The notes under the pieces were generated by a model. The model was not told the origin of the DNA and did no database searches. It saw nothing but the letters and a program-made list of their open reading frames with translations. Below, in pieces: positions 9,004-30,200 of a DNA stretch of 53,605 nucleotides. Positions within the stretch are counted from its first letter, which is position 1. Each line of letters starts with the position of its first letter. The stretch is from a virus (taxonomy: Duplodnaviria > Caudoviricetes). The stretch covers positions 1-53,605 of the IMG/VR virus record IMGVR_UViG_3300009418_000023. One strand, written 5' to 3'. A program made the translations under genes and the position numbers.

Positions 9004-9115
9004 AATACCTCCTCTTTAAACTTACTAAGGAGAAGCGTGGGAGCAGAGCACTTCGGATACAGTAATGTATCGCCCGCAGCAGCAGACCACGCTCCCCCCG
9101 TTCAGTTACGTGGGA

Positions 9116-10108
9116 TTAACCCACAAGTTGAAGAGCAGAGCGGAACACTTTAGTAGAATCTTTAGCATTCGTACCAATCAAGTTGCTATAGGCAGCAGAA
9201 GCGGGGGTCTTCTTACGTCCTCTAGTAGCAACGCGGTGCTGAATGTGATTCGTAACAGAGTTCGCTGCAATCCAAAGATTTATACCAAAGTCTTTGGCTT
9301 CTTCCTCAAACGTATTAGTCCATGAAGAAATCTCAACAGCAGCCTTAACCTTTTCTGCTTCCTCTTCTTCATTGGTGGGGTTGTTAACAATAGTTACATC
9401 GTTAAGCATCTGATATACAGACACGAAGAACTTCTTAACATCCTCTACCGTGGGCTCAGTACGGCCAAGAACTTTGACAGTATTCTCAAAGAATGTACCT
9501 ACCTCATTGTAACGCATGACAGCATCACGGGCAGCATCCATCTTTTCTTCCATATTACCAGCATGTTTAATACTGATCTTGTTAGTAGCTTTGTCAGCCT
9601 GACCAATAACCATATCTAGTGTGTTCTTACATACAACACGTACAGATGTGGGTAGTGCGGTCATAGACATACTACCATCATGACTCCAGAATAAAGCCAT
9701 GTACTTATTAACTGCATCATTATAAACAGCATCAAACGTTTCTCCCTTAAGGAGTAAGTAAACCTTTGAACCGTTCTGGACTGAGCCTGCCGACTCAACC
9801 TTTACATCCTTACCGAAACACTCAGCAAGTCTGAACACTTCCTCATTCTGAAGTACTTTGTAGTTTGATCCTACAATACCCAGAATATCAGAAGTATCTT
9901 GTCGTATAATAGCATGATGATCATCACTATAAGACATAAGTGGAGTGTTGGTAAGGATACCATTACTCTTGCTTACTTTCCAACCAAGGTCGGCTTGCTC
10001 AAGTGCATCACTAATACTAAACGGATTCTCAATTACCTTACCAAGGCCGTGCCATGCAGGCTTAGCAAAGTATACTGCAGAATCATTCTCCGTCATCTCG
10101 TGTGACAT
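9116..10108 (-). CDS. DUF932 / TIGR03299-like phage-plasmid protein
   Basis: PAWHGLG, YKVLQNEE, ESAGS, SHDGS, SVRVVCKNTL. Confidence 0.88.
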   Translation of the reverse strand: MSHEMTENDSAVYFAKPAWHGLGKVIENPFSISDALEQADLGWKVSKSNGILTNTPLMSYSDDHHAIIRQDTSDILGIVGSNYKVLQNEEVFRLAECFGKDVKVESAGSVQNGSKVYLLLKGETFDAVYNDAVNKYMALFWSHDGSMSMTALPTSVRVVCKNTLDMVIGQADKATNKISIKHAGNMEEKMDAARDAVMRYNEVGTFFENTVKVLGRTEPTVEDVKKFFVSVYQMLNDVTIVNNPTNEEEEAEKVKAAVEISSWTNTFEEEAKDFGINLWIAANSVTNHIQHRVATRGRKKTPASAAYSNLIGTNAKDSTKVFRSALQLVG

Positions 10109-11267: not shown

Positions 11268-11282
11268 TGTTGTTCTCCTTAA

Positions 11283-11356
11283 TAGCTCCGGTGGGACTCG
11301 AACCCACACTGTATGGATTTTAAGTCCACTGCCTCTGCCAATTGGGCTACGGAGCC
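11283..11356 (-). tRNA. tRNA-Leu(TAA), short variable arm
   Basis: GGCTCCG TAGCCCAATTGGCAGAGGC A GTGGA CTTAAAA TCCAT ACAGT GTGGG TTCGAGT CCCAC CGGAGCT A folds as a full cloverleaf. Confidence 0.9.
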
Positions 11357-11359
11357 AAA

Positions 11360-11432
11360 CACTCCGGGCAGGATTCGAACCTGCGACCCACGGTTTAGAA
11401 GACCGTTGCTCTGTCCCCTGAGCTACCGGAGC
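11360..11432 (-). tRNA. tRNA-Arg(TCT)
   Basis: GCTCCGG TAGCTCAGGGGACAGAGC A ACGGT CTTCTAA ACCGT GGGTC GCAGG TTCGAAT CCTGC CCGGAGT G folds as a full cloverleaf. Confidence 0.93.
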
Positions 11433-11436
11433 AGCA

Positions 11437-13969: not shown

Positions 13970-14326
13970 TTACAGGTTGATTGCAGTGAAGGATACAGTC
14001 GATCCTTCGGTGGCGTTCTCGTATACCTTCCTATTATAGAAAGGATTCTTCACGCTGTCAACCCCTCGAAAGAACTTCTTTACATTATTATCTGTACGAA
14101 TCTGGAACACATAGCCCTTGATTGGGACATGTGTATCTTCAATATACAGATCATAATCTGGGTACTGATTCAACAGGTTGTTGATTGCAGCTACCCCTAG
14201 TTCTACCTCGGTTCCGTTGAACCAAGTCTCCCAGTCACCTTCATTGTCATGGCACGCTTCAACAGAGAAGCTAGGCACATCAAATCCAGAAACTCGGGAA
14301 CGTACTGTAATGTTTGGATACATCAT
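13970..14326 (-). CDS. Hypothetical protein
   Basis: GGAG RBS. Confidence 0.75.
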   Translation of the reverse strand: MMYPNITVRSRVSGFDVPSFSVEACHDNEGDWETWFNGTEVELGVAAINNLLNQYPDYDLYIEDTHVPIKGYVFQIRTDNNVKKFFRGVDSVKNPFYNRKVYENATEGSTVSFTAINL

Positions 14327-14328
14327 TA

Positions 14329-14541
14329 TTATTCTCCAAAGTTTGAATTCATCTCCACACCTACGTTAGCGTGAAGTTTCTCAAGTTCGTTCAATCGACT
14401 GAAAGCCAAGGATCGTACCTCAGTCTCAGTCTTATCAGTGTCAGTTACATTAGGGAAACTCTCTCGAATTTCCACAGGGTTACCAAAGCCGTCTACGGTA
14501 TTATACACGAAGACACAATAGGTGTTATCATTCATCATCAT
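14329..14541 (-). CDS. Hypothetical protein
   Basis: AGGAG RBS; ATGA overlap. Confidence 0.7.
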   Translation of the reverse strand: MMMNDNTYCVFVYNTVDGFGNPVEIRESFPNVTDTDKTETEVRSLAFSRLNELEKLHANVGVEMNSNFGE

Positions 14542-14849
14542 TTATCTCCTAGATACCAGTCAAGAAACTCAAGCTCTATCCAATGCTTATGATCCTCTAT
14601 TGAGTATACCATGGAATCTTCGTAAGTATGAAGCATAGCATGGAGATCCCATTGTTCGGAATCGAATCTTTCTTTGTATTCCTCATATGGAATCTCAGTC
14701 CACGTACCCTCAGTGAATTGGGTAGGTAGATTGCTGGCAAAGAAATACTCATCAGAAATTGCATCAGAGATCAATTCCTTGGCATTATCGGGGGCTTGCC
14801 ATACCCAATTCCGATACCCGTATTCTTCGTCTACTAAAACTGTAAGCAT
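14538..14849 (-). CDS. Hypothetical protein
   Basis: Start MLTVLV after AAGGAG. Confidence 0.75.
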   Translation of the reverse strand: MLTVLVDEEYGYRNWVWQAPDNAKELISDAISDEYFFASNLPTQFTEGTWTEIPYEEYKERFDSEQWDLHAMLHTYEDSMVYSIEDHKHWIELEFLDWYLGDK

Positions 14850-14870
14850 AACTGCTCCTTTGAAATAAAC

Positions 14871-14968
14871 TAGCCCCGTGGGAATCGAACCCACTAGTCT
14901 TTAGTTTTTAGGCTCTACGTCACCCTACTTACCCTAGACACGTAGAATGTAGTCACCTCGACAGGGCA
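14871..14968 (-). ncRNA. tRNA-like structured RNA (T-arm, non-canonical body)
   Basis: GTGGG-TTCGATT-CCCAC T-arm; terminal GCCCTG/CGGGGC pairing possible; internal TCTACGT...ACGTAGA stem; no normal D or anticodon arm. Confidence 0.45.
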
Positions 14969-15072
14969 TTAGATTGTTCCAGTGTATTACCAGTTATACT
15001 ACATACGCGACGCGCGTAGTACATTACATACTATATTTCGCCATATGAACGGGAGTCGAACCCGTATCTCTG

Positions 15073-15144
15073 GAATGTTAGAGTAGTTTAGTGTCATGAG
15101 GCTTATATTGCCTTCCCATAGAGTTACCGCTCTTACTCAGGACA
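15073..15144 (-). repeat. ~72-bp direct repeat copy 1, putative pseudoknotted ncRNA
   Basis: Near-identical to 15837-15909. Confidence 0.85.
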
Positions 15145-15445
15145 AGTATATCGACCCATCCCGAAGGTTCCCGCCAAGGGTAGTGGCGCTATCATTCCTT
15201 ATAAAGATGACACATTTGCTACTCTTGGCTGCATCTAAACCTCAACCTAGCCCCTTCAACCGTCCAACATTACTAGGCATGTCTATATAGTTCATAGTGC
15301 AGAGGATTAGGCTACACAACCGTCAGGGGTGGCTCAATTAGTCTCACTTGGCTAGCACAATGCAAGCCCTAATGATACATCACATGAAGCGGTCTATGGC
15401 AGGGTCATGACTCCCTACATCCCTTTGTTCTCACACGTGTAAAAA

Positions 15446-15524
15446 TGGAGGCGGGCGGAGTCGAACCGCCGTCTTCGAGAGTCCGACATGCGGAGTTCTC
15501 TCGAATCTAAACCAAATCACCCCC
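15446..15524 (-). ncRNA. Mini tmRNA-like RNA (tRNA-like domain only, G3-U70 Ala acceptor)
   Basis: GGGGGTG ATTTGGTTTAGA TTCGAGAG..CTCTCGAA GAC GGCGG TTCGACT CCGCC CGCCTCC A. Confidence 0.75.
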
Positions 15525-15588
15525 CATAACGCGGAAGCCAGCGTGCTACCAGTCATAACACTACTAGGCCCAAGGTGCGACCTTGGCG

Positions 15589-15785
15589 TAACCTAGACAG
15601 GATTCGAACCTGTTCTACTGGACTCTCCTTGTTGATTGTTGACCGGCAGGATTCTCTATACCTGCAACCGAGAGATATCGTAAAGATATGGTCACCTCAG
15701 TACCAGCGTGATCCCAGTCAAGGGAATGCCCTAAACCACTTGGTCGTTGGGCAGACTACCACAGTCTACGCTTGTGCCTTAGGCT
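15589..15785 (-). ncRNA. ~197-nt multi-hairpin RNA closed by an acceptor-like stem and T-arm
   Basis: ACAGG-TTCGAAT-CCTGT then CTAGGTT-A; 5' AGCCTA pairs with TAGGTT; internal hairpins GTAGACT/AGTCTGC, TCCC/GGGA, GCAGG/CCTGC. Confidence 0.45.
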
Positions 15786-15836
15786 CCGATGTCAGAAGCC
15801 TTATTCAGCCACGGTCTACCCCCGTCGGGGTGTGTT

Positions 15837-15909
15837 GAATGTTGGAGTAGTTTCAAGTCATGAGGCTTATATTGCCTTACCATAGAGTTACACACTCTTA
15901 CTCAGGACA
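15837..15909 (-). repeat. ~72-bp direct repeat copy 2, putative pseudoknotted ncRNA
   Basis: Near-identical to 15073-15144. Confidence 0.85.
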
Positions 15910-16107
15910 GTGGTGATGCATCCCTCCCAATATTTATACAGGTAGGGAGAATCCCCTGTGATAGTTGTCTCCCCGCATCCTATAGATGCTACGAGGAATT
16001 CACAAGGCTCTCCGAAGATAGCCTATACCTCTCTAAAGGGAGAAAAGGTGTACCCCCGTTATCGAGGGGTACACCGAAGTTTGTCGAAAAAAGCAGATGC
16101 CCGTAGA

Positions 16108-16386
16108 TCAAGCCTTCTTGTCGGATTTCTCTTCCAACAGGGTAATCTTGATCCCACACGCTTCTAATTCCTTCTGAAACGCGGGTCTCTTCTCGCATGC
16201 CTTCACAGCACGGGATATCCAACGGTTCATTGCCAGCTTACCCCACTCTTTATCCTTCACGCCCATGACATTCCTAGCAGAGCACAGGTTATCCTTGATC
16301 GCCTTCTCGCTATACTCACGAGTAGGAGACTTCTTGGACCGCTCCGCAGGTGTCAGGGGTGTGATTTCGTATTCGTATGTCATCAC
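16108..16386 (-). CDS. Hypothetical protein
   Basis: GGAGG RBS before GTG/ATG. Confidence 0.7.
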   Translation of the reverse strand: MMTYEYEITPLTPAERSKKSPTREYSEKAIKDNLCSARNVMGVKDKEWGKLAMNRWISRAVKACEKRPAFQKELEACGIKITLLEEKSDKKA

Positions 16387-16593
16387 AGACCTCCGTTAAC
16401 CTTAAGTCTAACCTCAGGGTACATACACATAGTATGTAAACCCAATAACAATAACAATACAGACAAACTAAGCTTCAAACTTAGCTCATACTATACTATT
16501 ATACCCATGTATACCGCCCACGCACACAAGTGCTGCTCACACAGCAACTTACCACGTGCCCCGGCGGGCATAACAGAGTAAGGGATACTGAGA

Positions 16594-16697
16594 CAGGCGG
16601 AGCCTGAGCTAGTGTCCCACGGATTACAAGGCGGAGCCTAATCTATACTCCACAGTTGCACATACACGTTCCATATTATATATGCAGGGCGGAGCCC
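16594..16697 (-). promoter_or_regulatory. Three N4-type hairpin promoter candidates (GC-GGA-GC on the + template strand)
   Basis: CAGGC-GGA-GCCTG (16594-16606), AGGC-GGA-GCCT (16629-16639), GGGC-GGA-GCCC (16687-16697). Confidence 0.55.
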
Positions 16698-16704
16698 CTG
16701 TAAA
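16675..16704 (-). promoter_or_regulatory. Putative sigma70-type promoter
   Basis: Minus strand TTTACA-18 nt-TATAAT in an intergenic region, pointing into the early genes. Confidence 0.45.
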
Positions 16705-16740
16705 GACAGGCCACACTTGACTAATAAATAGTCGGTTCAG

Positions 16741-16775
16741 AAAAGCCCCCCTGAGGAATCTCACCTCAGAGGGGT
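16741..16775 (-). terminator. Rho-independent terminator
   Basis: Minus strand CCCCTCTGAGG-TGAGATT-CCTCAGGGGGG followed by CTTTT, downstream of 16808-17371. Confidence 0.75.
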
Positions 16776-16807
16776 GGAGTTTATTCAGTCTTTACTTAAG
16801 ACTTAAC

Positions 16808-17371
16808 CTACCACTTTACGCTGGCAACTGCCTTCTTTACCTCTTTGTCGGTTTCATACAAAACCGCACACTTAGCAAACTCATTATCAAACCGTGATTC
16901 ACAGGCCTTGATTGACAATTCCTTTGTCAGGCAGGGAATGGATTCGATAGTTATCGGATAACTCTGTATCAGTGTTTTCCCTCCTAAGGAGAGTCCGCAT
17001 TTCTCACAGAGCCAAGTCGTAACAAACTTGCCATCAGAAGTCTTCGTTGTCTTGGGAGTTTCCAGTCTTCGCAGCAATCGAATGTACCGAAGGTTATTCG
17101 TGTCAAAGGATTCAATCATAAGATTGTCACCCTCAACTGTGAAACCAAGTTCGTCACACTCTTTCTTTACGGAGACTGAATCAAGGGGGCGATAGCCGAT
17201 GTAGGTGTGAAGCTTATCCACATCCACATTACCATCCAAAGAGATGATCCTAAGGGCTATGGTGCCTTCCTTGTTATTCACAATAGCATCCACAAGAAAC
17301 GGGTTTCCGTCGGCATCCACTGCTTCACGCATGACATGCCTAGACGAGTGGTAGGTTTGTGAACCAGCCAT
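16808..17371 (-). CDS. Hypothetical protein downstream of RNAP2
   Basis: AAAGGAG RBS; 187 aa; contains CEKC. Confidence 0.8.
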   Translation of the reverse strand: MAGSQTYHSSRHVMREAVDADGNPFLVDAIVNNKEGTIALRIISLDGNVDVDKLHTYIGYRPLDSVSVKKECDELGFTVEGDNLMIESFDTNNLRYIRLLRRLETPKTTKTSDGKFVTTWLCEKCGLSLGGKTLIQSYPITIESIPCLTKELSIKACESRFDNEFAKCAVLYETDKEVKKAVASVKW

Positions 17372-17430
17372 GATTCACTCCTTTCAATGAAGTATAGCCT
17401 ACTCCGGGCCATTGACGAAGGCCAATGATG

Positions 17431-17471
17431 ACGGGCTCTCGTCAGAGGGTCGAGGACTAACGAGAGCCCGT
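17431..17471 (-). other. 15-bp intergenic stem-loop (possible RNase III site)
   Basis: ACGGGCTCTCGTTAG / CTGACGAGAGCCCGT, with one G-U pair on the minus strand. Confidence 0.6.
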
Positions 17472-17491
17472 GGATCTTTGGTCTTCAGTAC

Positions 17492-19324
17492 TCAGTCAAT
17501 CGTGTCGAGATGGTGCATACGAATCACTGGTGGGATCATCTCAGCAATCTCAGCGTATGATGGTCCACTCGGTGGCTCGACATCATTCGCTTCCCACAGA
17601 GGAGCCAACGTAGCCTCCATTGTGGGAATAATTCGCACCATGACATTACGAGCATTCTCAAAGAACCGCCCAACTCGACTTGGTTGAAGTAAGAAACCAT
17701 CATGGTTGTCAAGTTGATGCCAATCTTGACTTTTGTTTTCAAGATTGAGCTCACTGTTGAAGTACGAATCATATATCGCGGCGAGGTGACAGCTAATCGA
17801 TCCGAACATCTCAACCTCAAACGGTGTGTACGTTGCCTTGCCTTTCCTACCATTAACAGAACCCCTAACTGTACGCTCTGGTTCTGTTGTCAGGCGGCTA
17901 TAAGGCATGAAGGGAATTACTTGCCCATCACCACGAATCAACTCAATCATCTTGCCAGTGGTCTCGACGCAGTGCTCATTGGCATTACGTGAACGTTGTC
18001 CGAGAGATCTGATCTCCGGAATAACCTCATGCATAGCCGGAGCACCAACATTACGAACCCACTTCTTGGCCACATCATACAGCTCTTCATACGTAACTGC
18101 GGCACGGAGTGTGCCCTTCTTGGTGAAGAGATGTACGAAATCGGGGTGTGTGGGCACCCAACTCGGGTACTCAACATGGTCTAACAGGTAAACCCTGTCC
18201 TCTTGGTACAGCCGTTCCATCTTGTCTGGATCGAGACCCAAGAGGTGGGTTGCCATGACAGCAACACCAGCCTCATACTGTCCGCCTCGTGCCAACCGTT
18301 TGGCGGTAGTACGTAGCGAATCATCCAACTCAATATCATTATCCATGGAGTTGATCCACCGACACATCTCGATATATGCGTCTCGCCGTTTGCCTCCGAA
18401 GAGATTACCCAGCCGCATACCAGACATACTTTTCTCAATCAACGCCTGAAACAGCTGCCCCGAACAACCCTGATCAAACTCTGCCGCAAGGGTTGTCTTC
18501 CCAGTTTGGGCATACTCTTTGCACTTCAACGCCACGCGAACGAGGCCGTATCCGTACTTATCGATACACTGACTCACTGAGCCACAACTGAGAATTGCTT
18601 CCCAGTTGTTAGCGTGAAGACCTGCCATGCCATTCGTAATTGACCAGAACACATCTGGTGTACATTCTTCGGCATTAGCGAAATCAATAAGTCCCTTTGT
18701 ATGGCTCTCTGTTTGCCATCCACAGTTACTCATATGATTGTATCGCCTTCCACGCTTATCGATACGCCTTACTGTTGGGTAGAACACTGAGTCGCCTACT
18801 CGCTTCAGTTCTTCAGCTACAGTTTCGAAACGTTCTGCATAGGCTCCACCATCCTTCGAATGGAATGCATCTGATCCCATCCATCCTTCAAGAAGCTCCA
18901 TGCTGTAACGAAGCTGAGTATCAGAGGTCCACTGCATTGACTCTGTCATACGATCGCAGATCGGCATTACATTACTCGAACACCGAGTAACCTCAGGAGC
19001 CCAAAGGCCCGTCAGCTCTCGCCGTTCCGTCTGGATAATATGCTCTCGGTGTGGGTACTCTGTCTGTTGCTGCCCAATGTAGAACTTACAGCAACTCTTA
19101 GCAATCTCGTGTTGCTGATCGTCTTCATCAGGGAACTGACGCTGTAACTCTTTGAACTCCTGCGTTCCTTGCAGTTCCAGTTCTTGATGTGCAGGAATTA
19201 CTAAGCGATCCACAGCATCTGACCCATCCCAACTGGAGGGCTTAGCGTGATATAGCACACGCTTTACTAATTCCGAATCCCCCTCGACCAAAGGATTCAC
19301 TAGGGTTGTGTTATCATATTTCAT
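17492..19324 (-). CDS. Second, compact single-subunit RNA polymerase (RNAP2, ~610 aa)
   Basis: IDKRGRRY, motif A EFDQGCSGQ, RDAY, motif B RTTAKRLARGGQY (Rx3Kx7Y), motif C NHDGF. Start MKYDN after AGGAG (alternative start 19375). Confidence 0.85.
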   Translation of the reverse strand: MKYDNTTLVNPLVEGDSELVKRVLYHAKPSSWDGSDAVDRLVIPAHQELELQGTQEFKELQRQFPDEDDQQHEIAKSCCKFYIGQQQTEYPHREHIIQTERRELTGLWAPEVTRCSSNVMPICDRMTESMQWTSDTQLRYSMELLEGWMGSDAFHSKDGGAYAERFETVAEELKRVGDSVFYPTVRRIDKRGRRYNHMSNCGWQTESHTKGLIDFANAEECTPDVFWSITNGMAGLHANNWEAILSCGSVSQCIDKYGYGLVRVALKCKEYAQTGKTTLAAEFDQGCSGQLFQALIEKSMSGMRLGNLFGGKRRDAYIEMCRWINSMDNDIELDDSLRTTAKRLARGGQYEAGVAVMATHLLGLDPDKMERLYQEDRVYLLDHVEYPSWVPTHPDFVHLFTKKGTLRAAVTYEELYDVAKKWVRNVGAPAMHEVIPEIRSLGQRSRNANEHCVETTGKMIELIRGDGQVIPFMPYSRLTTEPERTVRGSVNGRKGKATYTPFEVEMFGSISCHLAAIYDSYFNSELNLENKSQDWHQLDNHDGFLLQPSRVGRFFENARNVMVRIIPTMEATLAPLWEANDVEPPSGPSYAEIAEMIPPVIRMHHLDTID

Positions 19325-19394
19325 GATAAACACTCCTGTGTGAGGGATTCTAAGGATGACAGTACAAACACTCATCCTATAAAAGTGTCAAAGG

Positions 19395-19422
19395 CCTCCT
19401 CCGACCCGAAAGCCAGAGGAGG
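19395..19422 (-). terminator. GC-rich hairpin upstream of RNAP2 (terminator or processing site)
   Basis: CCTCCTCTGGC-TTTCG-GGTCGGAGGAGG followed by CCTTTGACACTTTT. Confidence 0.45.
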
Positions 19423-19447
19423 TATACTTCTCTTCTTCCAGCATTAC

Positions 19448-19963
19448 TCACTTGGAACGCCTGTTGTACCACATTCCAAAGTGTGAGTTAGCATCTTCCA
19501 GATCCTTCCACATCCAGTAGTCACCCTTCGCCTTGAGTACCAGATCTTCGAGGATCTTGATATGGATCTCTTTGGGTGACCTCTTATCCTTGAGACGGCA
19601 TACATCTAGCAAATTCTGGATGTGCCGGGGCGCATCGTTGGCCGGATCACCCTTAAGGTGCTCCATCAGTCGCCAAGCAAACTGGTCTGCAACATCTTCT
19701 GCCGTCTTGTACGTGAAGTGACCAAAGTGAAGTTGCTGCAAGTTGTCACGAGTACCTGTAGCTATCCACACCCATAGCCTGAAGAAGGCCTCCAGAACCT
19801 CTTCGAGGGTTGTATCTTCCTCGAAGATAGAATCATGAAGTAACCGAATCTTCATAAGATAAGCGTCAGAGTCTACAGTTCCATCGGTGCCAGCGATAGC
19901 TTCCTTGACCCTCGCAAGGTCATCGGGACTATGCCAACAATCGAGTAACATATCGCCACTCAT
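19448..19963 (-). CDS. Hypothetical protein
   Basis: AAGGAG RBS; 171 aa. Confidence 0.8.
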   Translation of the reverse strand: MSGDMLLDCWHSPDDLARVKEAIAGTDGTVDSDAYLMKIRLLHDSIFEEDTTLEEVLEAFFRLWVWIATGTRDNLQQLHFGHFTYKTAEDVADQFAWRLMEHLKGDPANDAPRHIQNLLDVCRLKDKRSPKEIHIKILEDLVLKAKGDYWMWKDLEDANSHFGMWYNRRSK

Positions 19964-20011
19964 AACTAACTCTCCTTGTGTTAGAGGTATGATTTACATC
20001 ATCTCTGAATA

Positions 20012-20040
20012 GGACACACGGGATTTCTCGCCGTGTGTCC
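20012..20040. other. Perfect 10-bp inverted repeat
   Basis: GGACACACGG-9 nt-CCGTGTGTCC, intergenic. Confidence 0.6.
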
Positions 20041-20070
20041 GTTTGGTTGTTAAGTCCAGTTAAGGACTGA

Positions 20071-20280
20071 CTAGCTCACACGGATCACGGTGACATGATC
20101 CAGATGAGTAGCGAGTTCGCCTTCCCAGCTTGTGAGAAGCCGACGGTTACGAGGATAAGGATTGCCGAGCACGGTGTCAATCGCACGTGCCGTGAGCTGC
20201 TTGTCATCCTCAGTGATACCTTCAGCGTTCTTATCTTCTGGGGAAGGTGGAACCCAGAACCTTCGGGGGGGGGCGGTCAT
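20071..20280 (-). CDS. Hypothetical protein
   Basis: GAGGAGG RBS. Confidence 0.7.
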   Translation of the reverse strand: MTAPPRRFWVPPSPEDKNAEGITEDDKQLTARAIDTVLGNPYPRNRRLLTSWEGELATHLDHVTVIRVS

Positions 20281-20479
20281 AATGACCTCCTCGTGTTAGA
20301 GTTATGACCTACGCAGGTCATCTCAAAAGTCAGCACCACACCTTACGGCGAGGGCTGGTACACTGAGACAATACTAAAACCACTCTTCCCGACTTCCCCT
20401 CCATGAGAAGCATGGTAGTACTCTCTTAAGTCTCTCCGGATACCAGCGGTACCCGGAGAGGTGACTCGGCGTGATCACC

Positions 20480-20815
20480 TCATCGTTGATGGGTGATCAA
20501 TCCCGACTGATCGGGAAGCACAATCGCATCCCTACGCTTCTTCATCTGGACTTGATCCAGAGTGTCCGAAGTTTGAGGACCAACGATTAGCGTAACTGGA
20601 CTGCGCTTTCTATAGAAACGCTCAGCCACTTCGTCACTGACCCACTGATCCTGATGCCACCTAAGTGGAACCAGAGTTACAGTCTGTTCAGAACCTTTCG
20701 GTTCGTCCCTGACTAAGGAAGCACAGATGTGTCCCCAGTGATGCCAGATCACAAGTGTCAGCCCAGCTAGTGCAAGCACTAACGCCGATATGTTGTACCA
20801 TTGAGCATCGCTCAT
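20480..20815 (-). CDS. Membrane-anchored hypothetical protein
   Basis: AAGGAG RBS; N-terminal TM helix. Confidence 0.75.
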   Translation of the reverse strand: MSDAQWYNISALVLALAGLTLVIWHHWGHICASLVRDEPKGSEQTVTLVPLRWHQDQWVSDEVAERFYRKRSPVTLIVGPQTSDTLDQVQMKKRRDAIVLPDQSGLITHQR

Positions 20816-20857
20816 TATAGTACTCCTTTGGGTTGTGACCCCGAAGGGTCAGACCAT

Positions 20858-20947
20858 TGGCCTGTCTCATCAGTGCTGGGCGGCCAGTCCCAACAAACAC
20901 CATACTCCTCAACCATCGGCGGTTGAGGACGTAGGGGGTGTTTCGAC
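20858..20947 (-). ncRNA. Type II hammerhead ribozyme
   Basis: GUC-GAAA-[stem III CACC...GGUG]-UU-[stem I UGUUGGG/CCCAGCA]-CUGAUGA-GAC; loop I UGGCC can pair with the 3' GGCCA. Confidence 0.85.
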
Positions 20948-20987
20948 TATTCATCCGCAGTCGAAGCGGTGTCGAGTGCGTCAGGGT

Positions 20988-21173
20988 TTACTTACCCTGT
21001 GCAATTGCAACGCACTTCGGACACAGTGGGATCTCGATGCGGTTTCCATCCGCATCACAGACAGCCACTGTGATGCACGCGCAGAGGTGACTCTGCTCGT
21101 GCGATATGAAGCGCCCGCAATCGGAACACTGCTCTTGCGAGCTAGTGTTACGCCGGACATCGGATGATACCAT
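20988..21173 (-). CDS. Small Zn-finger-like protein
   Basis: AGGAGG RBS; CSDC...HLC...CPKC. Confidence 0.65.
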   Translation of the reverse strand: MVSSDVRRNTSSQEQCSDCGRFISHEQSHLCACITVAVCDADGNRIEIPLCPKCVAIAQGK

Positions 21174-21282
21174 AGTATCACCTCCTGTGGGTTGTGACCC
21201 TACAAGGGTCAGGCCTTAAGGGGATAGGGGGGGAGGGCATACCCTCCACCTCATCCATACCCACGGAGAAATTCTCGACCCC

Positions 21283-24200
21283 CTAGTCGATTATTCCCGC
21301 ATCTCTATCGTACCTTCTTTGTTGTGCCTTACGTTCTCTATCCTCCCATTCGGGACTCCCCACAGGAGCTCCTACAAGGCTCTCAGGAGCTCGCTCAGGC
21401 CGCGTCTCTCGGATAGCCCCCACTATATCTCGTCTCATAGGACGCGGTGTGGGGGCAGCAGGAGCCTGTGAGGGGACGCTAGGAGCGGTTGTCTTAGGAG
21501 CCGGTGCAGGGGTTGCTGCAGGATTGGGATATTGCATCTTAGGAGTACCTGTAGCACCGGAGGGATTATACCCCTGAAGGAGTTGTTGTTGGATTGCTGG
21601 TGGGAGGTTTTCAAACTTAGGTTCCCACCCTAGTTCTCTAAGGATTTCTCGTAAGTCTGCGGCATATTGGGGTAAATTAGATGTCTCAGAAAAAGAACCA
21701 TAGGTTGCCCATTTTTTGTTTGATGATTTAGCACCCCTGCTCATTGAGTTGTTTTGCCTTTGCCACTCTTCGCCCATAGCGGAGAAGAATATAATCCTAG
21801 TTAAGGCATCGCCTATAACCGGAAGTGTTCTCGTTAGCATTATCATTGATGCCCAATCTGTATCTTTTTCATCATCTGTCCAGCCATCTATCAGCTTCTT
21901 AACATTATACAAGAAGGAGTTCATTGCACCCACTGGTACAAATCCAAAAGCTTCTCGGTGTGTGTTTGCGTAGATACCTACTACGGTTTCCATAAGCAAG
22001 CCTATATATCTACCAAAGTGTGGTAATCTAGCCATCATAAACAATGATTGTTTAACCGGGTCTTCTTCCCATCCCTCGATGATGTCTTCTACAGGATATC
22101 CTGCAGCTACAAGCAACAGTGACATATACAATGAATCAACCATAGCATATGAAACCCAATGAAGGGCGTTTCGTCTAAGGCTGAATCTTTGGTTTCTTCG
22201 TCCAATTTGCTGAGAAGCAAATAATACAGGATACCGCCTAAAGGTTTCAAAGATAAGATCCCAGCTACTATTGCCCGTAGCTGTATCAAAGGGATTAGGG
22301 TCGACTAAGATTTCATGGATATATCTTTTTTCTGCTCTTCTTAATCCTGAAATTATATCAAGGTATTGTTTGTATTCTGGATCTGTAGTAGCCCACTGAG
22401 GACCGCCTTCCCATGCCTCACCTTTATTCAAATTAGTTAATAATCCTCCTAAGCTGTAATACTCATCTCCCTTAGGACTGTTAACCATCTTAGCAAGGAT
22501 ATCTACATTATCGTTTGTCAGAACACCCTCATTCATTAAATACATAATGTTTGCTGCGTCTGTTCCGGGCAGGCCTACTCTTGACATTAACTTAGAAATA
22601 ATCTTACGCCCATCTACAGTATCCCATTCTTTAGGATCAACCTGCTTATGTAAACGCAAGAACTCTTTTAGCTTACTGCCATCTCCACCAACCGTAGCTT
22701 GCTGTAACCATCCTCTAAAGATCGTAGCTCGTGAGGTAGCAATCATTTGATGCAGTATTCCTGCAAGGTGCATATTACGCTCACCTAACCACTGAGGTAA
22801 CCTTTGATACCACTCCGACCTTACATCAATATCTGGCCGAGCATAGTCTGGTATCCGACCTTGGTTAAATATTCGGATAATCTCTGCCATATCTCTTGCA
22901 ACATTCTTTCTAATGTTAGGATCAAGTCCCATAAGAGGGGCAACGGCAGCCTTAATAAAACCACCCATACTACCTCGACCAAGTAGTTGATCAATCATAT
23001 TCATAGTATTCTCTACTACAAGCGTAGCCATAGTAAGGTTTGTGCCAAAGACAATTCTAACAACATCTGGAGCATATCTTGTAATAAAGTTTAGAGTTTC
23101 ATCGGCTGAGTCTCTATTACTTTCCTGTTTACCTAAAATAGTATTATACTTGATCTCTAATACACCCATTGCTTTAGTAAGTATATCACTGTCTTTAGCA
23201 CTTATACGACTACCGTCACTATTAAAAAGATTACCCATACCCAGTACATTCCTAAAGATACCTAACACATCGCCAGTAGTAGCCTTAATCCCATACTTAT
23301 CCATATACATAGATTGCTCTGCAATCCTCTGCCCAAGATGTTTCATGATACCATCTGAAATTGTTTCTGGCCCCCAGACAAGCATATCTGCAATCGCAGG
23401 ATTATTCATAACTTCGTGGACCGGAGGAATAGCCCAATCATTAGAGAAGTATATCTTTCGTCCAGCACCATTCATAATGTTTGCCACATGAACACTTACA
23501 GGACTGCTGATAGTAGGAGACTGCTGTCTTGCGGATTTTCCTTCAACGACCCCAAGAGTCGCAAGTCTGGAATCTATAGACTGACCTCTAAGTATATCTA
23601 GACGAGCTTGATTAGGTTTCTTTGCCTCAGCCCTATACTTACTCCACCAACCAGCGGTAATTCGTGTGTTTTCACTATTAAACCCCAAGTAGTCAGCACT
23701 AAACTTATTCTTTTTGTATCGCATATACCTCATAATTTGAGCTATAGCTGGTATAACATAGTTAACATAAGTATTGTGTTGTTCAATAGTAGAAGTTTTA
23801 TTTGTAAGTAAGCTACGGTATTCTTCATTTGTTTTAATACTTGCAAGTCTAGTTAGTGTGCTATCATAAGATGTGCTTCTTTCGCTCTGGCGTTGCCTCA
23901 TTAATTCGGCCATTGCCATAATTTCTTTCCAGAGTTGTGGGTTCTTAGTTTCTAACTCAGCTAACTCTTTTAGCCCTACTTCGGGATCAGCCAAATGAGG
24001 AAGCTCGCCCATTGCGTATAAAGTATAAGGACACATTCTTCTTGTTTTAAGATCTATATTCTGAGATTCCGTAACAATACGATCTCCAATAACCTTACCC
24101 ATTTCTTCTCTAAAGTTATTATAAACCGGCTGATCTTGTACCTTAGCATTCGCAAACATAAAAGGAATAGCTTCATCAAAAGCTCTATCCATAACACCTA

Positions 24201-27200
24201 CTTCGACCCCCATATGGTTTACAATACCTAGTAATGCAGCATAGTTAGTTACAATATTATCTGCTTCCTTTCTTAGCTCTGTGCTGTTTACAAGCAATGC
24301 ATCCGTGTACTCATACGCTTCTCCTGCCATTTGTTTTACTAACTTAGTCCACACTTCTTTAGCAAAGGTATCTCTTGTTTTCTCGTTTCCGGCAGTATTC
24401 CCTAATACCTGAGTTCTAAATCGAACGGTTGATTCAATAGGCCCAATAATATCATCGTAGACTCTTTCCATAGAGTTTCTAATCTCAGTAGATATTTGGT
24501 CAATCTGCTGAACAGAACCTAAGACATGGGGTATGCCATCCATATTACCCCAATGTCCTGCCATAGTACTCATTGAGTTGTCAATCATTGTTGATAACAT
24601 AACAAGTAAAGTAAAGGGAGAATTCCAAGTAGCACCGGATTCAGTACTACCAGTAGCAAGCATAGTCATAAACTGTTTTACTTTAGAACCAATACCACCC
24701 GGCCTGTTAAAGTAAGGAAGCTGCTGTATTGCCTTAGTAGCTTCAGCCATAAAGCGTCCGTCATTCCCCCGCATCATTTTAGTCATATCCATCAGTATCT
24801 GTGTAGCAAGAATCTGTTGATCATGAGGAGTACCTTCAACGAATATTCTCTTAACATCAAGAAGATCTGGACCATATGTTTCAACTGAGAAGTCCCCGCT
24901 TCTAACACTATATTGATTCTTAAGGTTTTCCCGACCTATAAGGAATTCACCTGTAGTAATACCAAGCGGTGTTATTTTATTACCGCCAAGAGTATCACGC
25001 CTATTCTCTAGCTGACCACGCTCCTTACTCAACTCCTCCCACTCCTTTTCAAACTTTCCGGATTCACTTTCAGGTGCCTCGGGAGTATAGAAGTTATGGT
25101 GTATAGCGTCCTCTAATTCACCCATTCTTCTCTTAACTTCATCAAGAGATTGTAGGGTAGCTAGTAATTCGTTCTCTGTATTCTCCACCGTAGATTGTTG
25201 TTGTGTTCCTTCTGTAGACATATACAGCGGTCCCATATCAGGGTTACCTACATCAGCTATCGTATTTCTACTTGTCTTGGTTGCATCCTGTCCTAGAGTT
25301 CTTCTGATTAAGTTAATGGCTCTTTCGTATTCAGCTGGCTCGGTTGATTTAAAATCTGAGAATACAGAAGATACTCTATCTAATATCTTACCAATAAAGG
25401 CAAAGATTTTATCAATTATGGTTTGTGTCTTTGCAAAGAATCCCGCTTCTTCGGAAGTTAGAGGAGTATTGGCTTCAACCTGCCTTAGTAATTCTAAGGA
25501 ATCGTGTACTAAATGATACCCTGTCAGGGCCGCAATAAACTCTTCGCCCGTAGTATCGTTCATAATTCTAGCATACTCATCTTGAGCAGCCTTATTCCAC
25601 TGGCCGTTATGGAAAGCCATAACAAGTTTCTTCAGTGTTCCGCCACCCTGTTTACTCCGCTCGCGTAAGAATAACGTTCTCCACTCTCTATAGTGGTATG
25701 AATCATTCTCGATAAACATCATTCTACCAATATGGCCAATCTCCTCAGCCACTAAATACGCCACACTTAATGCATCTCTTCGCCCAACTAATTGATTACC
25801 AATTCTAATTGTATACCTACCACCTGATTTTTCTGCGGATCCTCTTCGCTGTTTCCCAGAATTATCAACCCACTCACTATCTAAGAATTCAAAATTAACC
25901 TCAAGAACCATATCAGGAGCATACTTAAACCACTTACCAAGAATTGCTCTTATCATTCTAGCTTGAGCCTCAGAAAGGCGACCACCGTCAACAGCCTCTT
26001 TTATCTTAAGGGATAGTTTACCCAACTCAGGAACAGCAGATGAGAAGTTATCGTGATTTCGAAGATCTCTGCTTTTAAGATGCAGCTCATTAAATAAATC
26101 CGGATCTCTATCAAACACATGAGTATCTAATACAGAAGCTAATGCCGCCTCTGCTGAAGAATGCATCTCGGTAGACATATCTTCAATATCATATATCTCC
26201 TGCAGATAAGCAAGGAAGTCAATAGTAATATCGGAATCACCAGAAACAGTACGTTCTCCCTCGCTAATCTGATCTACGTATGATCTAGCATCCCAATAAA
26301 AATCATTAAACTGTTGACTATCGGTTGCATTTAGGATTGACATAAGCTGATTAAACTCACCCTTAACTCTAAGGTAAGCACTAGAAACATCAGCATCAAA
26401 CTTTTCTTTTTCTGCCGCTGTTTCTCGTGACATCAGGGGGAAGAATACTCTAACCTCGCCCATCTCAATATCGGGTTGCCGTAACATAAGCCCAAGTATA
26501 ATAGCTCGTATGGTTGCTGGGTTTTTAATATTCCCATCAGTTAGTTGTAGTGTAGTTACAAGGAGTTCTTGAATAGTTCTATGCTCAAGATCAACCCCAT
26601 CTGTATACACATCCATATAAGATTCTCTAACCCCAGTTAGATCATGAATAAGACTCAACCCTCTTGAGTTAGCTTGTGAGTGAGGGCTACTATGTTCCAT
26701 TTCTATATTCCAAGTTGGAACAATAGTTTTAAAGGTTGTCTTTGCTTTTCCTTTTACCGTCCCTCGGAACGGTCCTTCAGAGGCAGCCTCAATATCAACC
26801 GGCGTTGTTCGTCTAACTAATTCCTTTAGAATTTTTTCGTTAAACTCTGCATCTTCTGAAATATATTTGTTATATAGATCCATAGATGCTTCCGGCGATC
26901 TTTCATTTATCTCCGCAATTTTTCTTCTAATTGCGTCTGCCTGTATAGGAGATCCAGAACGCTCAAAAGCTAAACTCAAATCTTTCTCGGTAACCACTAC
27001 TGGTTCACCATTAACTCGCGTGCCTCTCTTTTTTAAGGCAGCAGCAAACATACCCTCTTCACTCTTCTCACCGAGTTTTAATCCTTTAAGCAAACTATTT
27101 AAAGTCCAGTTTAGACTTTGTGTAATGTCACCACCTAAAAACTTAGAATCAGCGAGCATGTTGTTTTGCATTAAGTCAATACTAAGTTCAGCAACTATCT

Positions 27201-30200
27201 GCGCAGTATTAAGATCATTAGCAAGGATACCTAACTTTCTAAGGTCAAAACTATTTCCATTATAAGTAACTACCTTGCCTCCCGCTAACAAATGCTGCTT
27301 CAACATCTTTAATAAAGCTCTAGCTTCACTTCCGCTTACTGAACGAGTAGGCGAGAAATGCTTACCCTTTTTAAACCCCACTCTTCCTGCTGCTTCAAGT
27401 GTTCTTTCAACACCACCAATACCTACAATACGTTGTTCCAAGTCCATCGTAGTTTCAATATCAATAGATATAACATTATCTGTATCGTATATCCAATTAG
27501 GGTTGCTTTGGATTTCAATAATATTAGCTGCTTCAGCTTCATCTAAACCTAGCGATGTTAAGATTTCTACTGCTTTGGTAGGATTATGTTGAGACCACAT
27601 AGTTCTTTCTGGTGCAGCCCTAGCCATAATATTCATCTCAAGCAAACCTAAACTAGATAGTCTCTTCATAGCTGTAGTAATTGGAGAGATTAAAGACTCA
27701 ATAAAGAAGGGTAATGCATTAGGTCTAAGTCCAGCATCTGGTCTATAATAATTAATCCAGTCTACAACTCTAGGTTTAATATTACCAGATGAACGAGAAC
27801 CATCAACAAGCATATGAGCAACGGTGTGTCCTGATTCAACACGATCTACTATAATCTCCATTGCTTCACTTAAGACTCTTTCTCTGTTCATCTTTTCAGT
27901 TTCACTGTAGCCGAAGTAATCAGCCATCTCTTCAGCATCAGATCGAACTAACTCAGGCTTACCTTCGGCATTAGATCGATAGCGACCTGTTGGCTTGTTG
28001 GTACGCATCGCGGTTTCTATTCTTTCGATAAAAGGATAGTTCTTATGTGACGAAAGCATCAGTAAAGCACCCATTGGTGTAATACCGAGTTTCATGTTTG
28101 TTCCGATTACCGTTCTTGGAACTCTCATAAGCATAGTAAAGGGGCCACCCATAGGATTACGTAAAATCATTTTATCAGTACGTTCATCCTTCGTTGGCTG
28201 CTGCTGTATTAACTTAACAAGGTCATTTCTACCCTCAACACTCTCTACAATAAAATCAAAGGAGAATACAGGATCATTTGCTAGTACAGCTTTCTCTCTA
28301 GCTACATTAATAATAGCTTCTCTGTGATCTGGAGGAATAGCGTTAAAGGATTGTATATCTCTTTGATTAGCAATAACTCTTAATTGTTTCTTTAGTGCGG
28401 GCTCCTTAACAATACCTATATATGTTTCTATAGCTTCAGATATATACCCATCCCACAGTACTCCTACAAGAAACTCCAACTCATCCACAGACTGAACAAG
28501 TAAGGGATGTATGGCCGTCTCTTCTAGTTTAATTGTTTCGCCCGGATTAACCCCCTCTTCAATTATAAAGTGCTCTGTAGGAACTAAGCTTTTTTTCAAA
28601 GCTTTGTGAATAAGGGTTGGTCCGGATAAGACAGAGAATGGATTATTCTCCGAATATGGACTTGTCAGGATATCATATAGCGTTCTATCTGCTAAGTCTG
28701 GATTTAAAATACCAATTTCATGTCCCTTAGTTTCCATAAGTAAGGAAGACATCTCTTTGTATCTAATATCCCGAGATAATTGGAACAGCGCGTGGAATCC
28801 TTCGAGGTATGTATTACGGGCTTGTAGTAGTTTCTCTTCGTTAGTTAGTCCTTTATCTCCATAGCGTACAGCAGAAATGATCTGGTCCATTTCATGTTCA
28901 AGTTTTTGATCAAACCTATATACTAAATACAAGTACGGTACCATTTCTGGATCAAGCATCTCTGCCTCAAAGCCACGTTCTATTGCCCACTTACTCATCT
29001 TCATCTCAACAACATTAGCTACCATCTCAGGTGCATTAGCATCTAATCCCATAAGATAGTCTAGATAATCAGACTTAACATCTGGACCCATTGGAAGAGT
29101 TTCTCTATTCCAAGGTTTCTCGAATCCTCTACTAGTTACTGGAATTAAGTGATCAGGGTTTTCTAAGGGTTGGTCTAACATAGCCGATACTTCTTCAATA
29201 GGACTCATCATCTCTCGTTCAGCGGCATGATAAGCTTTATTCTGAAGGTATAGGTTGCCCTTATTGTGATAAGGCATTCTCCTAGTTTCAGGAGCCCAAG
29301 ACATGTATCCCCTTGGTTTGTCTGTAGACTCGAATACCATATCTTCTGTATCGTGTCGTAGTTCTGTCATTGTATGTTCTGCGGACCCTCTGAAGGTCAT
29401 AGGATGTCCTGCGACTGGGACCAGTAAACCTATACCCTTAGAGAAATAATCTATGCTTGCTTGGTTTCGAGAACCATCAGCATTCCTAACACTATCTTGT
29501 TGTAGTCTTTGCGCATTAGTATGATCTATAGCAGCTTCTTGAGAATGCTCCCACCACTGACTCAATACTTCGGCTTCGAGTTCATCCATATTATCTTCAG
29601 CTTTATATTTTGACAGAGGCGGCTTCTCGGGTTCTGTAACTCTAAGAAGCATTTCATTTCTCATCATAAGAACAGCAATAGTATGATCCATTCTCTTGTG
29701 CCACTCCGCTACTTCAGCGTCATTATCAAAATCAACCATTCTCATTATGGGGTTGCCATATTTATCTAACCTTACCTTCCCATTTTTATCCCTAACCGGA
29801 ATCTTTTGATGAGGATTATCTTCCATTCTCCACTGACCCAACGGAGATTCGCCTTCTACGTCTACAAATACTTGCTTACCGTTTACATATTCGTAGGGAT
29901 TTTCAGACCACTCCATGATCTTTCTACCAATCTTAGCAGGGTTATCCCAATCTTCATCTCTAATCTCTTCTGCTACGAAACTTTTAAACGCATCTTGATT
30001 AGTTTGGATTCTAGCAAACATCGTGTTGTGATGGTGTCTATTCATATTAGAACTTGCAGAATAGGTTCTATAACTCTCAAGACCGGGTAAGAAGATTTGA
30101 TACAGAATAAAGTTCTGAATTCCAAGAAGATCTTCTTCATTAAATCTCTGGTGATTAGTTGCTGCTTGTGCCTTTAATACATCTACAGCAACTCTGAACC

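Follow-up and report, generated by a model that had tools for sequence, protein, structure and literature searches.

Why would a T7-like phage encode two single-subunit RNA polymerases (RNAPs), one of canonical size and one reduced to about 610 residues? The question is raised by the IMG/VR virus record IMGVR_UViG_3300009418_000023, a stretch of 53,605 bases that was analysed at its full length (hereafter, the window), has a completeness estimate of 79% and carries every gene on the minus strand. With genes for a nozzle protein, a tail fibre, a large terminase, a canonical RNAP, a primase-helicase and a family-A DNA polymerase, the window phage is a T7-like podovirus, and the runs containing its sequence are labelled marine metagenomes. 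Its canonical enzyme, termed RNAP1, occupies the T7-like genome position (6248-8689; PF00940, E 3.5e-82) and is at most 27.5% identical to any record among the deposited phages (50,697 phage records), which places the lineage far from cultured phages. The second protein, termed RNAP2, had been described in an earlier reading of the DNA (the original prediction) as a divergent polymerase, probably active, that lacks the promoter-binding domain of T7. This core claim is supported by invariant residues, by selection and by the modelled fold, activity itself being predicted. RNAP2 represents a new and highly divergent clade within a known superfamily; we hold its family membership and the selection acting on it with high confidence and consider it likely to be an active polymerase.

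The minus-strand frame 17492..19375 is open for 627 codons. Because all seven relatives of the protein begin at the residue matching M18 of this frame, we place the start there, which gives a gene of 610 amino acids (aa) running from 19324 to 17492. The gene and its motifs are as follows:

17492..19324, minus strand: RNAP2, a 610-aa divergent T7-like single-subunit RNAP, recognised from its open reading frame (ORF), relatives, family profile and fold
18746..18760, minus strand: T/DxxGR motif DKRGR (D189-R193), aligned with T7 DWRGR by the family profile and with RNAP1 DFRGR by BLASTP
18473..18475, minus strand: catalytic Asp of motif A, D284 in FDQGCSG, invariant in 8/8 family members and aligned with T7 D537
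18275..18313, minus strand: motif B, R338-x3-K342-x7-Y350 (RTTAKRLARGGQY), with R, K, G347, G348, Y and G353 invariant in 8/8
17699..17704, minus strand: motif C, H541-D542 in NHDGF, the Asp (codon 17701-17699) invariant in 8/8 and HD aligned with T7 H811-D812

When recomputed from the translation, the motif coordinates, the length of about 610 aa and the absence of a frameshift all agree with the original prediction, as does the short lead before DxRGR, about 190 aa compared with about 400 in RNAP1 (D189 versus D400). Y350 (18277-18275) lies 66 residues past D284, versus a motif A to motif B spacing of 102 in T7, and is followed across the family by E/G/M and then by A/G-G. The T/DxxGR motif has the family form D-x-R-x-R; its Gly is present in two of the seven members covering the region and so is not conserved. 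Among eight window proteins scanned, the four motifs are collinear in RNAP1 and RNAP2 only, and the best BLASTP segment between these two pairs their DxRGR motifs (E 0.008). As a pattern of sequence, the motif set of RNAP2 is more than chance.

Used alone as a query, RNAP2 matched no Pfam family at E<=1 and no PDB sequence at E<=10. No match was found by tblastn in the 50,697 phage records, either with RNAP2 or with its relative P0003, and none in a search of one genome per species with RNAP2; a word-indexed protein search retrieved only RNAP2 itself and, when the family profile was used, only P0001 and P0002. The single-protein signal came from a PHROG annotated as "N4-like RNA polymerase" (E 1.2e-3, residues 204-239). 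An exhaustive HMMER search of 1.84 billion representatives identified eight proteins at E<=0.001, namely RNAP2 and seven relatives that are from 41% down to 26% identical to it, the full-length relatives being single polypeptides of 599-642 aa. The eight-sequence alignment has 22 invariant columns, including D284, R338, K342, G347, G348, Y350, G353 and D542. Decay of the catalytic residues in homologues, a finding that would speak against the original prediction, is absent: the Asp, Lys and Tyr are invariant in 8/8 members, down to 19-23% identity. Matches of the family profile include T7 RNAP (E 3.4e-7), mitochondrial RNAPs (6e-5 to 7e-4) and gp16, the large subunit of N4 RNAPII (6dt7_B, 7.9e-4), and the alignment to T7 lines up the DxRGR, motif A and motif C regions. 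PF00940 matches six of the eight members at E<=1 (among them P0003 at 27.7 bits, above the Pfam gathering cut-off of 22, and P0004 at 19.7, P0002 at 15.4, P0005 at 13.2 and P0008 at 11.4, below it), the window protein and P0007 giving no signal.

Selection on the family could be gauged from L007 and L008, two of the related loci introduced below and the sole pair of relatives close enough to estimate the ratio of nonsynonymous to synonymous change (dN/dS). Their RNAP2 proteins are 66.6% identical, with pN 0.223 and a saturated pS of 0.73, and the resulting dN/dS of about 0.1 indicates purifying selection; dN/dS in homologues was among the checks suggested with the original prediction. So far, the clade is known only from contigs of uncultured marine podoviruses, which encode a canonical T7-type RNAP as well; for P0007 and P0008, no viral-contig locus was recovered in the contig search. 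In the literature searched, the scope of which did not extend to subscription journals, we found neither the RNAP2 family described nor a T7-like marine phage with a second, minimal RNAP. A T7-like phage can thus carry two unrelated-looking RNAPs of one superfamily, and since Pfam and PHROGs miss one of the two, more such enzymes are probably hidden in viral dark matter.

An AF2 model of RNAP2 built from the eight-row alignment (pLDDT 67.4, pTM 0.64) has a polymerase fold of the T7 RNAP type, as the structure prediction suggested for RNAP2 alone had been meant to show or deny. Its top Foldseek matches are T7 or mitochondrial RNAPs only (E ~1e-7). In VIA comparisons, the model matches T7 RNAP with a Z of 22.2 (419 residues aligned, root-mean-square deviation 6.7, ~12% identity), followed by yeast mitochondrial RNAP (Z 20.7), N4 mini-vRNAP (13.3) and N4 RNAPII gp16 (12.6). 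Relative to T7 RNAP and the Autographiviridae RNAPs (PF00940), RNAP2 therefore resembles the known enzymes from T7 residue 263 to the C-terminus (RNAP2 residues 91-603 match T7 263-880), with T/DxxGR and motifs A, B and C collinear. It differs in its low identity, in the shorter motif A to motif B spacing, in being a second RNAP beside a canonical one, in escaping detection by Pfam in the window copy and in its N-terminal region, where about 90 residues, predicted as five helices, replace the first ~262 of T7. In T7 RNAP, residues 1-262 contain the AT-rich recognition loop and the intercalating hairpin. Pfam finds no match to a PF14700-type N-terminal promoter-binding domain in RNAP2, and the AF2 model, which is of moderate quality, has no beta-hairpin before residue 138. 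A missing promoter-binding domain is compatible with membership of the superfamily, because this domain is reduced in N4 RNAPII too. One beta-hairpin is predicted further downstream:

17828..17875, minus strand: beta-hairpin of residues 484-499 in the AF2 model (pLDDT ~88), at the position of the T7 specificity loop and before the PNFxHS-like box

We infer its placement relative to T7 772-849 from the profile alignment, and the presence of a beta-hairpin at the specificity-loop position, as in T7 RNAP, suggests that RNAP2 keeps some sequence reading itself.

The original prediction further stated that RNAP2 lacks the PNFIHS box and the terminal YFFA. This is true of the window copy, in which SISCHLAAIYDS stands at the box position and the C-terminus reads HHLDTID (RNAP1 has SPNFIHS and ends in YFFA), but not of the family: a degenerate PNFxHS-like box, N-V-S-A-D-x-x-H-S-x-D-G, is kept in 7/7 relatives, and at least three of the seven end in L-F-x, similar to F-A-F-A in T7. 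Because the relatives keep these counterparts, the loss of the box and of the terminal motif is specific to the window copy, which has one other departure:

17777..17779, minus strand: A516, aligned with T7 H784; His in the other seven family members

The C-terminus and H784 of T7 RNAP matter for catalysis and substrate choice. Departures of this kind, i.e. Ala at the H784-aligned position in the window copy only (1/8), a C-terminal extension where relatives end in L-F-x and the missing PF00940 signal (shared only with P0007 among the eight), would suit a copy that is non-catalytic, decaying or relaxed in its choice of substrate and is kept for DNA binding, ejection or structure. We regard such a copy as highly improbable: the reading frame runs uninterrupted for 610 codons and encodes both metal-binding Asp residues and the R, K and Y of motif B, an identical protein is recorded on 24 contigs, and no difference is listed where contigs of three other runs span the gene. 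In addition, H513, three residues upstream of A516, might substitute for the missing His. A516 and the altered C-terminus are a caution for the window copy, not for the family.

Does the short N-terminal region mean that RNAP2 uses unusual templates? It need not, because other phages have RNAPs annotated at 599-673 aa (Escherichia phage phiEcoM-GJ1, 648 aa; KAW1A4500, 599 aa; phiV141, 673 aa). The best structural matches of RNAP2 in BFVD include such enzymes (top matches E ~2e-9), so its size is not unique, whereas its identity to them is only ~11-13% and, as noted above, tblastn finds nothing like it in the phage records. The phages in question may encode their short enzyme as the sole RNAP. 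These enzymes favour an account in which RNAP2 is an ordinary second-class phage RNAP that reads duplex promoters of its own through the specificity loop and shares the transcription programme with RNAP1, the downstream gene described next being a mere neighbour. We consider this account unlikely. No repeated duplex promoter or promoter-like motif was found in the window for either RNAP1 or RNAP2, and an intercalating-type beta-hairpin is missing from the N-terminal 135 residues, a point of little weight given the moderate model. Further evidence on both sides comes from the DNA that follows the gene.

Related DNA was recovered as ten loci (L002-L011) which, with the window, make up five sequence types. 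In the window, RNAP2 is flanked by two genes:

16808..17371, minus strand: 187-aa gene directly downstream of RNAP2, without known family (hereafter, the partner gene)
19448..19963, minus strand: 171-aa upstream neighbour, without a counterpart in related loci at E<=1e-4

The original prediction had offered the 171-aa neighbour as one candidate partner of RNAP2, a suggestion that fails: as it is conserved in none of the related loci, it probably lies outside the system. Directly after RNAP2, an ORF of 173-187 aa is found in 10/10 related loci and is 25-35% identical to that of the window. The order of the locus is constant, beginning with the C-terminus of a giant protein (in the six loci that reach that far) and continuing with small unconserved ORFs over 1.5-3.4 kb, RNAP2, the partner, a largely non-coding stretch with one small ORF and a 104-aa homologue, the first conserved early gene. 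L002 and the window share 72% identity in RNAP1, 39% in RNAP2 and 28% in the partner, indicating that the RNAP2-partner pair evolves fast. The partner gene of L007 compared with that of L008 has a pN of 0.222 and a pS of 0.766. No similarity of the 187-aa protein was detectable in Pfam, PHROGs or NCBIfam, and a fold search in Atlas returned nothing above thresholds. Whether RNAP2 and the 187-aa protein are a functional pair is, in our estimate, evenly balanced.

Two more distant phages carry pairs of ORFs in the RNAP2 slot, as located by synteny:

L014, 5198-6988 and 7064-7612: ORF pair of 596 and 182 aa
L020, 3939-5747 and 5775-6422: ORF pair of 602 and 215 aa

The large ORFs of the two pairs are homologues (E 2e-31) in which D, K-x7-Y and HD align at RNAP2-like spacing, and Pfam recognises neither. 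Compared with the RNAP2 family by hhalign, the L014 ORF aligns at motif A (E 3.2e-4, prob 39%) and the L020 ORF gives no direct match; their membership of the family is suggestive only. The downstream ORF of L014 has no similarity to the partner.

A close parallel for a reduced enzyme with a small partner is N4 RNAPII (gp15 plus gp16), which the accessible text of PMC4496689 describes as a minimal enzyme of 673 aa whose N-terminal domain is truncated; it is inactive on duplex DNA and needs gp2, a small single-stranded-DNA-binding protein without known family, as its recruiter. The same text gives cofactor use as the rule for T7-like RNAPs other than T7 itself: gp1/gp2 for N4 RNAPII, SSB for N4 vRNAP, and Mtf1 or TFAM/TFB2M for the mitochondrial enzymes (PMC4496689). 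RNAP2 is likewise minimal with a reduced N-terminus, and both its family profile and its model match gp16 (above). It differs in that N4 RNAPII is a heterodimer split after the DxxGR region, whereas RNAP2 is one polypeptide in all full-length members; in that RNAP2 resides in a T7-like rather than an N4-like genome, with a partner that has no detectable similarity to anything; and in that N4 RNAPII promoters are short AT-rich sequences, whereas the candidate elements here are hairpins.

We propose the following mechanism. RNAP2 retains the parts of the polymerase hand (thumb, palm and fingers), the four catalytic motifs and a hairpin resembling the specificity loop. Since about 90 residues replace the ~260-residue region for promoter binding and DNA melting, it is probably unable to open a duplex promoter alone, and an enzyme without this melting and upstream-binding domain should need a cofactor or non-duplex DNA. 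RNAP2 may work with the adjacent 173-187-aa product on pre-melted or extruded DNA, in the manner of N4 RNAPII with gp2 or of mitochondrial RNAPs with Mtf1/TFB2M. Its candidate promoters would be three GC-rich triloop hairpins that lie past the gene pair and read C-GGA-G on the template strand, and from these it would transcribe a small ORF, non-coding RNAs and then the early genes. Late expression and virion delivery of RNAP2 are conceivable, because the gene pair sits after the terminase and two giant proteins and before the early region. As a whole, we rate this mechanism as plausible, if slightly short of an even chance, and we advance its hairpin component, which is argued by analogy, more tentatively still: the hairpins are possible RNAP2 promoters.

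The DNA downstream of the partner gene contains these elements:

16746..16774, minus strand: terminator-like hairpin of 11 pairs followed by a T-run, after the partner gene
16719..16737, minus strand: conserved box AACCGNCTATTTATTAGNC, in itself an inverted repeat of 5 bp, found once in the window and also in L007 and L008
16687..16697, minus strand: hairpin 1, GGGC-TCC-GCCC, template strand GCGGAGC
16629..16639, minus strand: hairpin 2, AGGC-TCC-GCCT, template strand GCGGAGC
16586..16614, minus strand: hairpin 3, a conserved outer stem around the inner stem CAGGC-TCC-GCCTG (16594-16606)

On the coding (minus) strand, GGCTCCGCC occurs at 16696, 16638 and 16604, three times compared with 0.06 expected, all within 16596-16696, and nowhere else in the window; when the same hairpin criteria were applied to both strands of the whole window, only two further matches were found. 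The counterpart hairpins of L006, L007, L008 and L011 differ in their stems (GGC/GCC, GCC/GGC, CCC/GGG and TGC/GCA). Over the 14 hairpins of five lineages, the closing pair is C:G in 14/14 and the loop centre is C (G on the template) in 14/14, the loops being TCC in ten, TCT in three and CCT in one; the template-strand loop is thus GGA in 3/3 window hairpins and in 10/14 across lineages. The distance between hairpins 2 and 3 is a constant 33-34 nucleotides (nt) in 5/5 lineages. Hairpin 2 and the two-tier hairpin 3 together comprise 15 pairs, of which nine are changed on both sides among the five sequences, with 93.3% of cells paired, compared with 21-36% in slid controls; none of 500 shuffles was as good. 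The C-YCY-G trio is missing at the L014 and L020 loci, where other small GC hairpins are found.

The stems also differ within one phage and remain complementary (e.g. GGGC, AGCC and GTGC in L011), and the coding-strand loop is always pyrimidine, which argues for a strand-specific single-strand structure rather than a palindromic operator. This bears against the ordinary duplex-promoter enzyme considered above, under which the hairpins would be unrelated to RNAP2 and would serve instead as an RNA leader, as spacers of host promoters or as regulator sites, and so does the fact that C:G-closed three-base GGA loops on the template are of the stable DNA mini-hairpin type. The same unlikely account gains some ground from the overlap of hairpin 1 with a sigma70-like promoter, from the significant fold of the coding-strand RNA and from a U-G pair in hairpin 3 of L007 that suits RNA better than template DNA.

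The elements resemble the vRNAP promoters P1-P3 of N4. In the accessible text of PMC13037366, N4 mini-vRNAP binds a GCGGAGC mini-hairpin with a three-base GGA or GAA loop and a 5-bp stem, contacting the central G; according to that of PMC4496689, three such promoters lie in the leftmost 10% of the N4 genome, require a C:G closing pair with a 5' G and a 3' A in the loop, and are read by vRNAP at -11, -10 and -8. Here, too, three tandem hairpins stand at the start of the early region, with three-base loops, GC-rich stems of 4-6 bp, C:G closure and a GGA template loop, and the window heptamer GCGGAGC is identical to that given for N4. The systems differ in that N4 vRNAP forms the middle domain of a virion protein of 3500 aa, while RNAP2 is free-standing with 610 aa and structurally nearer to T7 RNAP than to mini-vRNAP (Z 22 versus 13); in addition, the three window hairpins fall within ~100 nt and hairpin 3 has an extra outer stem. 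No candidate RNAP for the hairpins other than RNAP1 and RNAP2 was found in the window by Pfam, PHROGs, PDB or collinear motifs. A hidden N4-like vRNAP domain was also sought in two giant proteins of 5359 and 1430 aa, and Pfam, PHROGs, PDB phmmer and motif order revealed none, although extreme divergence could escape these searches.

In every lineage, the hairpin trio is followed by an AT-rich stretch with short direct repeats, and this arrangement brings in another use for the polymerase, as an origin-specific priming enzyme that synthesises short RNA primers at the module and at the repeats after it. T7 RNAP at the primary origin and mitochondrial RNAP at the OriL stem-loop are parallels for such priming, which may also be likened to that of primases starting at mini-hairpins in G4-type origins. 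RNAP2 would fit this role in being without the duplex-promoter domain of T7 RNAP, and the accessible text of PMC13037366 reports GC-rich GNA mini-hairpins not only at N4 promoters but also where replication initiates. We nevertheless think priming improbable: the phage has a T7-type primase-helicase of its own (1858-3567; phrog_239, E 3.9e-159), and in all lineages the module is immediately followed by a ribosome-binding site and a small ORF, as in a promoter region.

Several observations weigh against the proposed hairpin-dependent mechanism, in addition to the window copy's own Ala at the H784-aligned position and longer C-terminus. The link between polymerase and hairpins is drawn from adjacency and from analogy with N4, and adjacency is expected from conserved synteny alone, because all loci belong to related phages. 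By fold, RNAP2 stands closer to the RNAPs of T7 and mitochondria (Z 20-22) than to those of N4 (Z 12-13), and the model has a pLDDT below 50 around DKRGR. Four of the 14 loops (TCT, CCT) give no GNA loop on the template strand, and by the N4 ruler the +1 position would be A or T, versus the G start of N4. Hairpin 1 lies within the spacer of a sigma70-like TTTACA-18-TATAAT site (16704-16675, 11/12), while hairpin 3 caps a longer conserved stem and is followed by a T-run in three lineages. The coding-strand RNA fold (z -2.77) and the template-strand DNA fold (z -2.46) are equally significant, and the module may accordingly be an RNA leader or a host promoter. Finally, the partner model is weak (pLDDT 63.5), and two likenesses considered for it, a dsRBD-like fold (Z 7.7 over residues 96-173) and a PUR-alpha-like fold (E 9e-3, prob 0.41-0.51), were rejected as being at noise level.

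The most far-reaching form of the proposal is that a marine T7-like podovirus lineage runs two single-subunit RNAP systems, one with a canonical T7-type enzyme and one in which a minimal RNAP of ~600 aa, together with a dedicated cofactor of ~180 aa that binds nucleic acid, initiates at hairpins with N4-type GGA triloops extruded where the early region begins. We find this doubtful as it stands; in it, the minimal RNAP, whose gene closes the late-gene block beside the two giant proteins, may be delivered from the virion. If it were true, hairpin-promoter transcription would not be peculiar to N4-like phages, and its minimal hardware would be a polymerase of ~70 kDa plus a partner of ~20 kDa. 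Single-subunit RNAPs are model enzymes and biotechnology workhorses, and the pair would offer a compact natural system for the recognition of non-duplex promoters by T7-like polymerases and for what a cofactor contributes to it.

The first ORF past the hairpin module occupies 16108-16386 (minus strand) in the window, 3835-4047 in L006, 9962-10172 in L007, 3132-3343 in L008 and 3891-4103 in L011. In the four other lineages, its product falls into two sequence types and ends in (T/S)-F-N-G; the 92-aa ORF of the window looks unrelated. A conserved structured non-coding stretch follows the small ORF in the same four lineages. In the window, about 1.2 kb (14870-16100, minus strand) is without a long ORF and contains a manA RNA at 15636-15831 (79 bits), a tmRNA-like 3' piece ending in CCA at 15443-15524 (51 bits), at least four GGTTCGAnTCC elements resembling tRNA T-arms but not called as tRNAs by ARAGORN, and a 55-nt direct repeat (15073-15127 and 15837-15891, 91% identical).

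All of these elements belong to a region of distinct base composition, within which small genes are each preceded by a similar hairpin:

14000..22000, no strand: G+C-rich island containing RNAP2, the partner gene, the hairpin module and the non-coding RNAs
21215-21170, 20855-20815 and 20320-20280, minus strand: hairpin before island small genes

The G+C content of the island is 0.45-0.52 versus 0.39-0.42 elsewhere, and L002 shows an equal rise. The breaks and loose contig ends seen at positions 21269 and 19275/19324 reflect a co-occurring L002-type lineage that shares short conserved stretches. The hairpins before the small genes are of the GACCC-TTGT/TTCG-GGGTC type and are followed by ACAACCCA-N-AGGAG and then by the start codon; they may be a processing or translation-control element. 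A type II hammerhead ribozyme lies at 20856-20948 (minus strand, 39.0 bits) in the window and at 2747-2817 (plus strand, 40.6 bits) in L020, both just above the Rfam gathering score of 37, and its cores CUGAUGAG and GAAAC are readable in the window sequence. Its position is alike in these two very divergent phages, where it lies between small ORFs, after the giant gene and before the RNAP2 slot.

The giant gene itself (21283-37362, minus strand, 5359 aa) and a second long ORF (37401-41693, minus strand, 1430 aa) lie downstream of the terminase and have no convincing family. The 5359-aa protein has a weak RNase_H_2/DEDD-like match (E 1.1e-3) near residue 3300-3400 and the 1430-aa protein a weak match to a virion-structural PHROG. 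Over its C-terminal part, the giant protein shares 47-53% identity with its counterparts in the related loci and ~26% with those in L014 and L020.

In the early region, a G+C-rich intergenic stretch with clear inverted repeats (9004-9125, minus strand) is found upstream of the 105-aa gene that precedes RNAP1. Three further loci (L016, L017 and L019) encode an RNAP1 homologue (55% identical) and carry the homologue of the 104-aa early gene downstream of RNAP1 rather than upstream, showing that early-region gene order is not fixed in the wider group. Two neighbouring tRNA genes, Leu(TAA) and Arg(TCT), also lie among the early genes of the window (11282-11433, minus strand).

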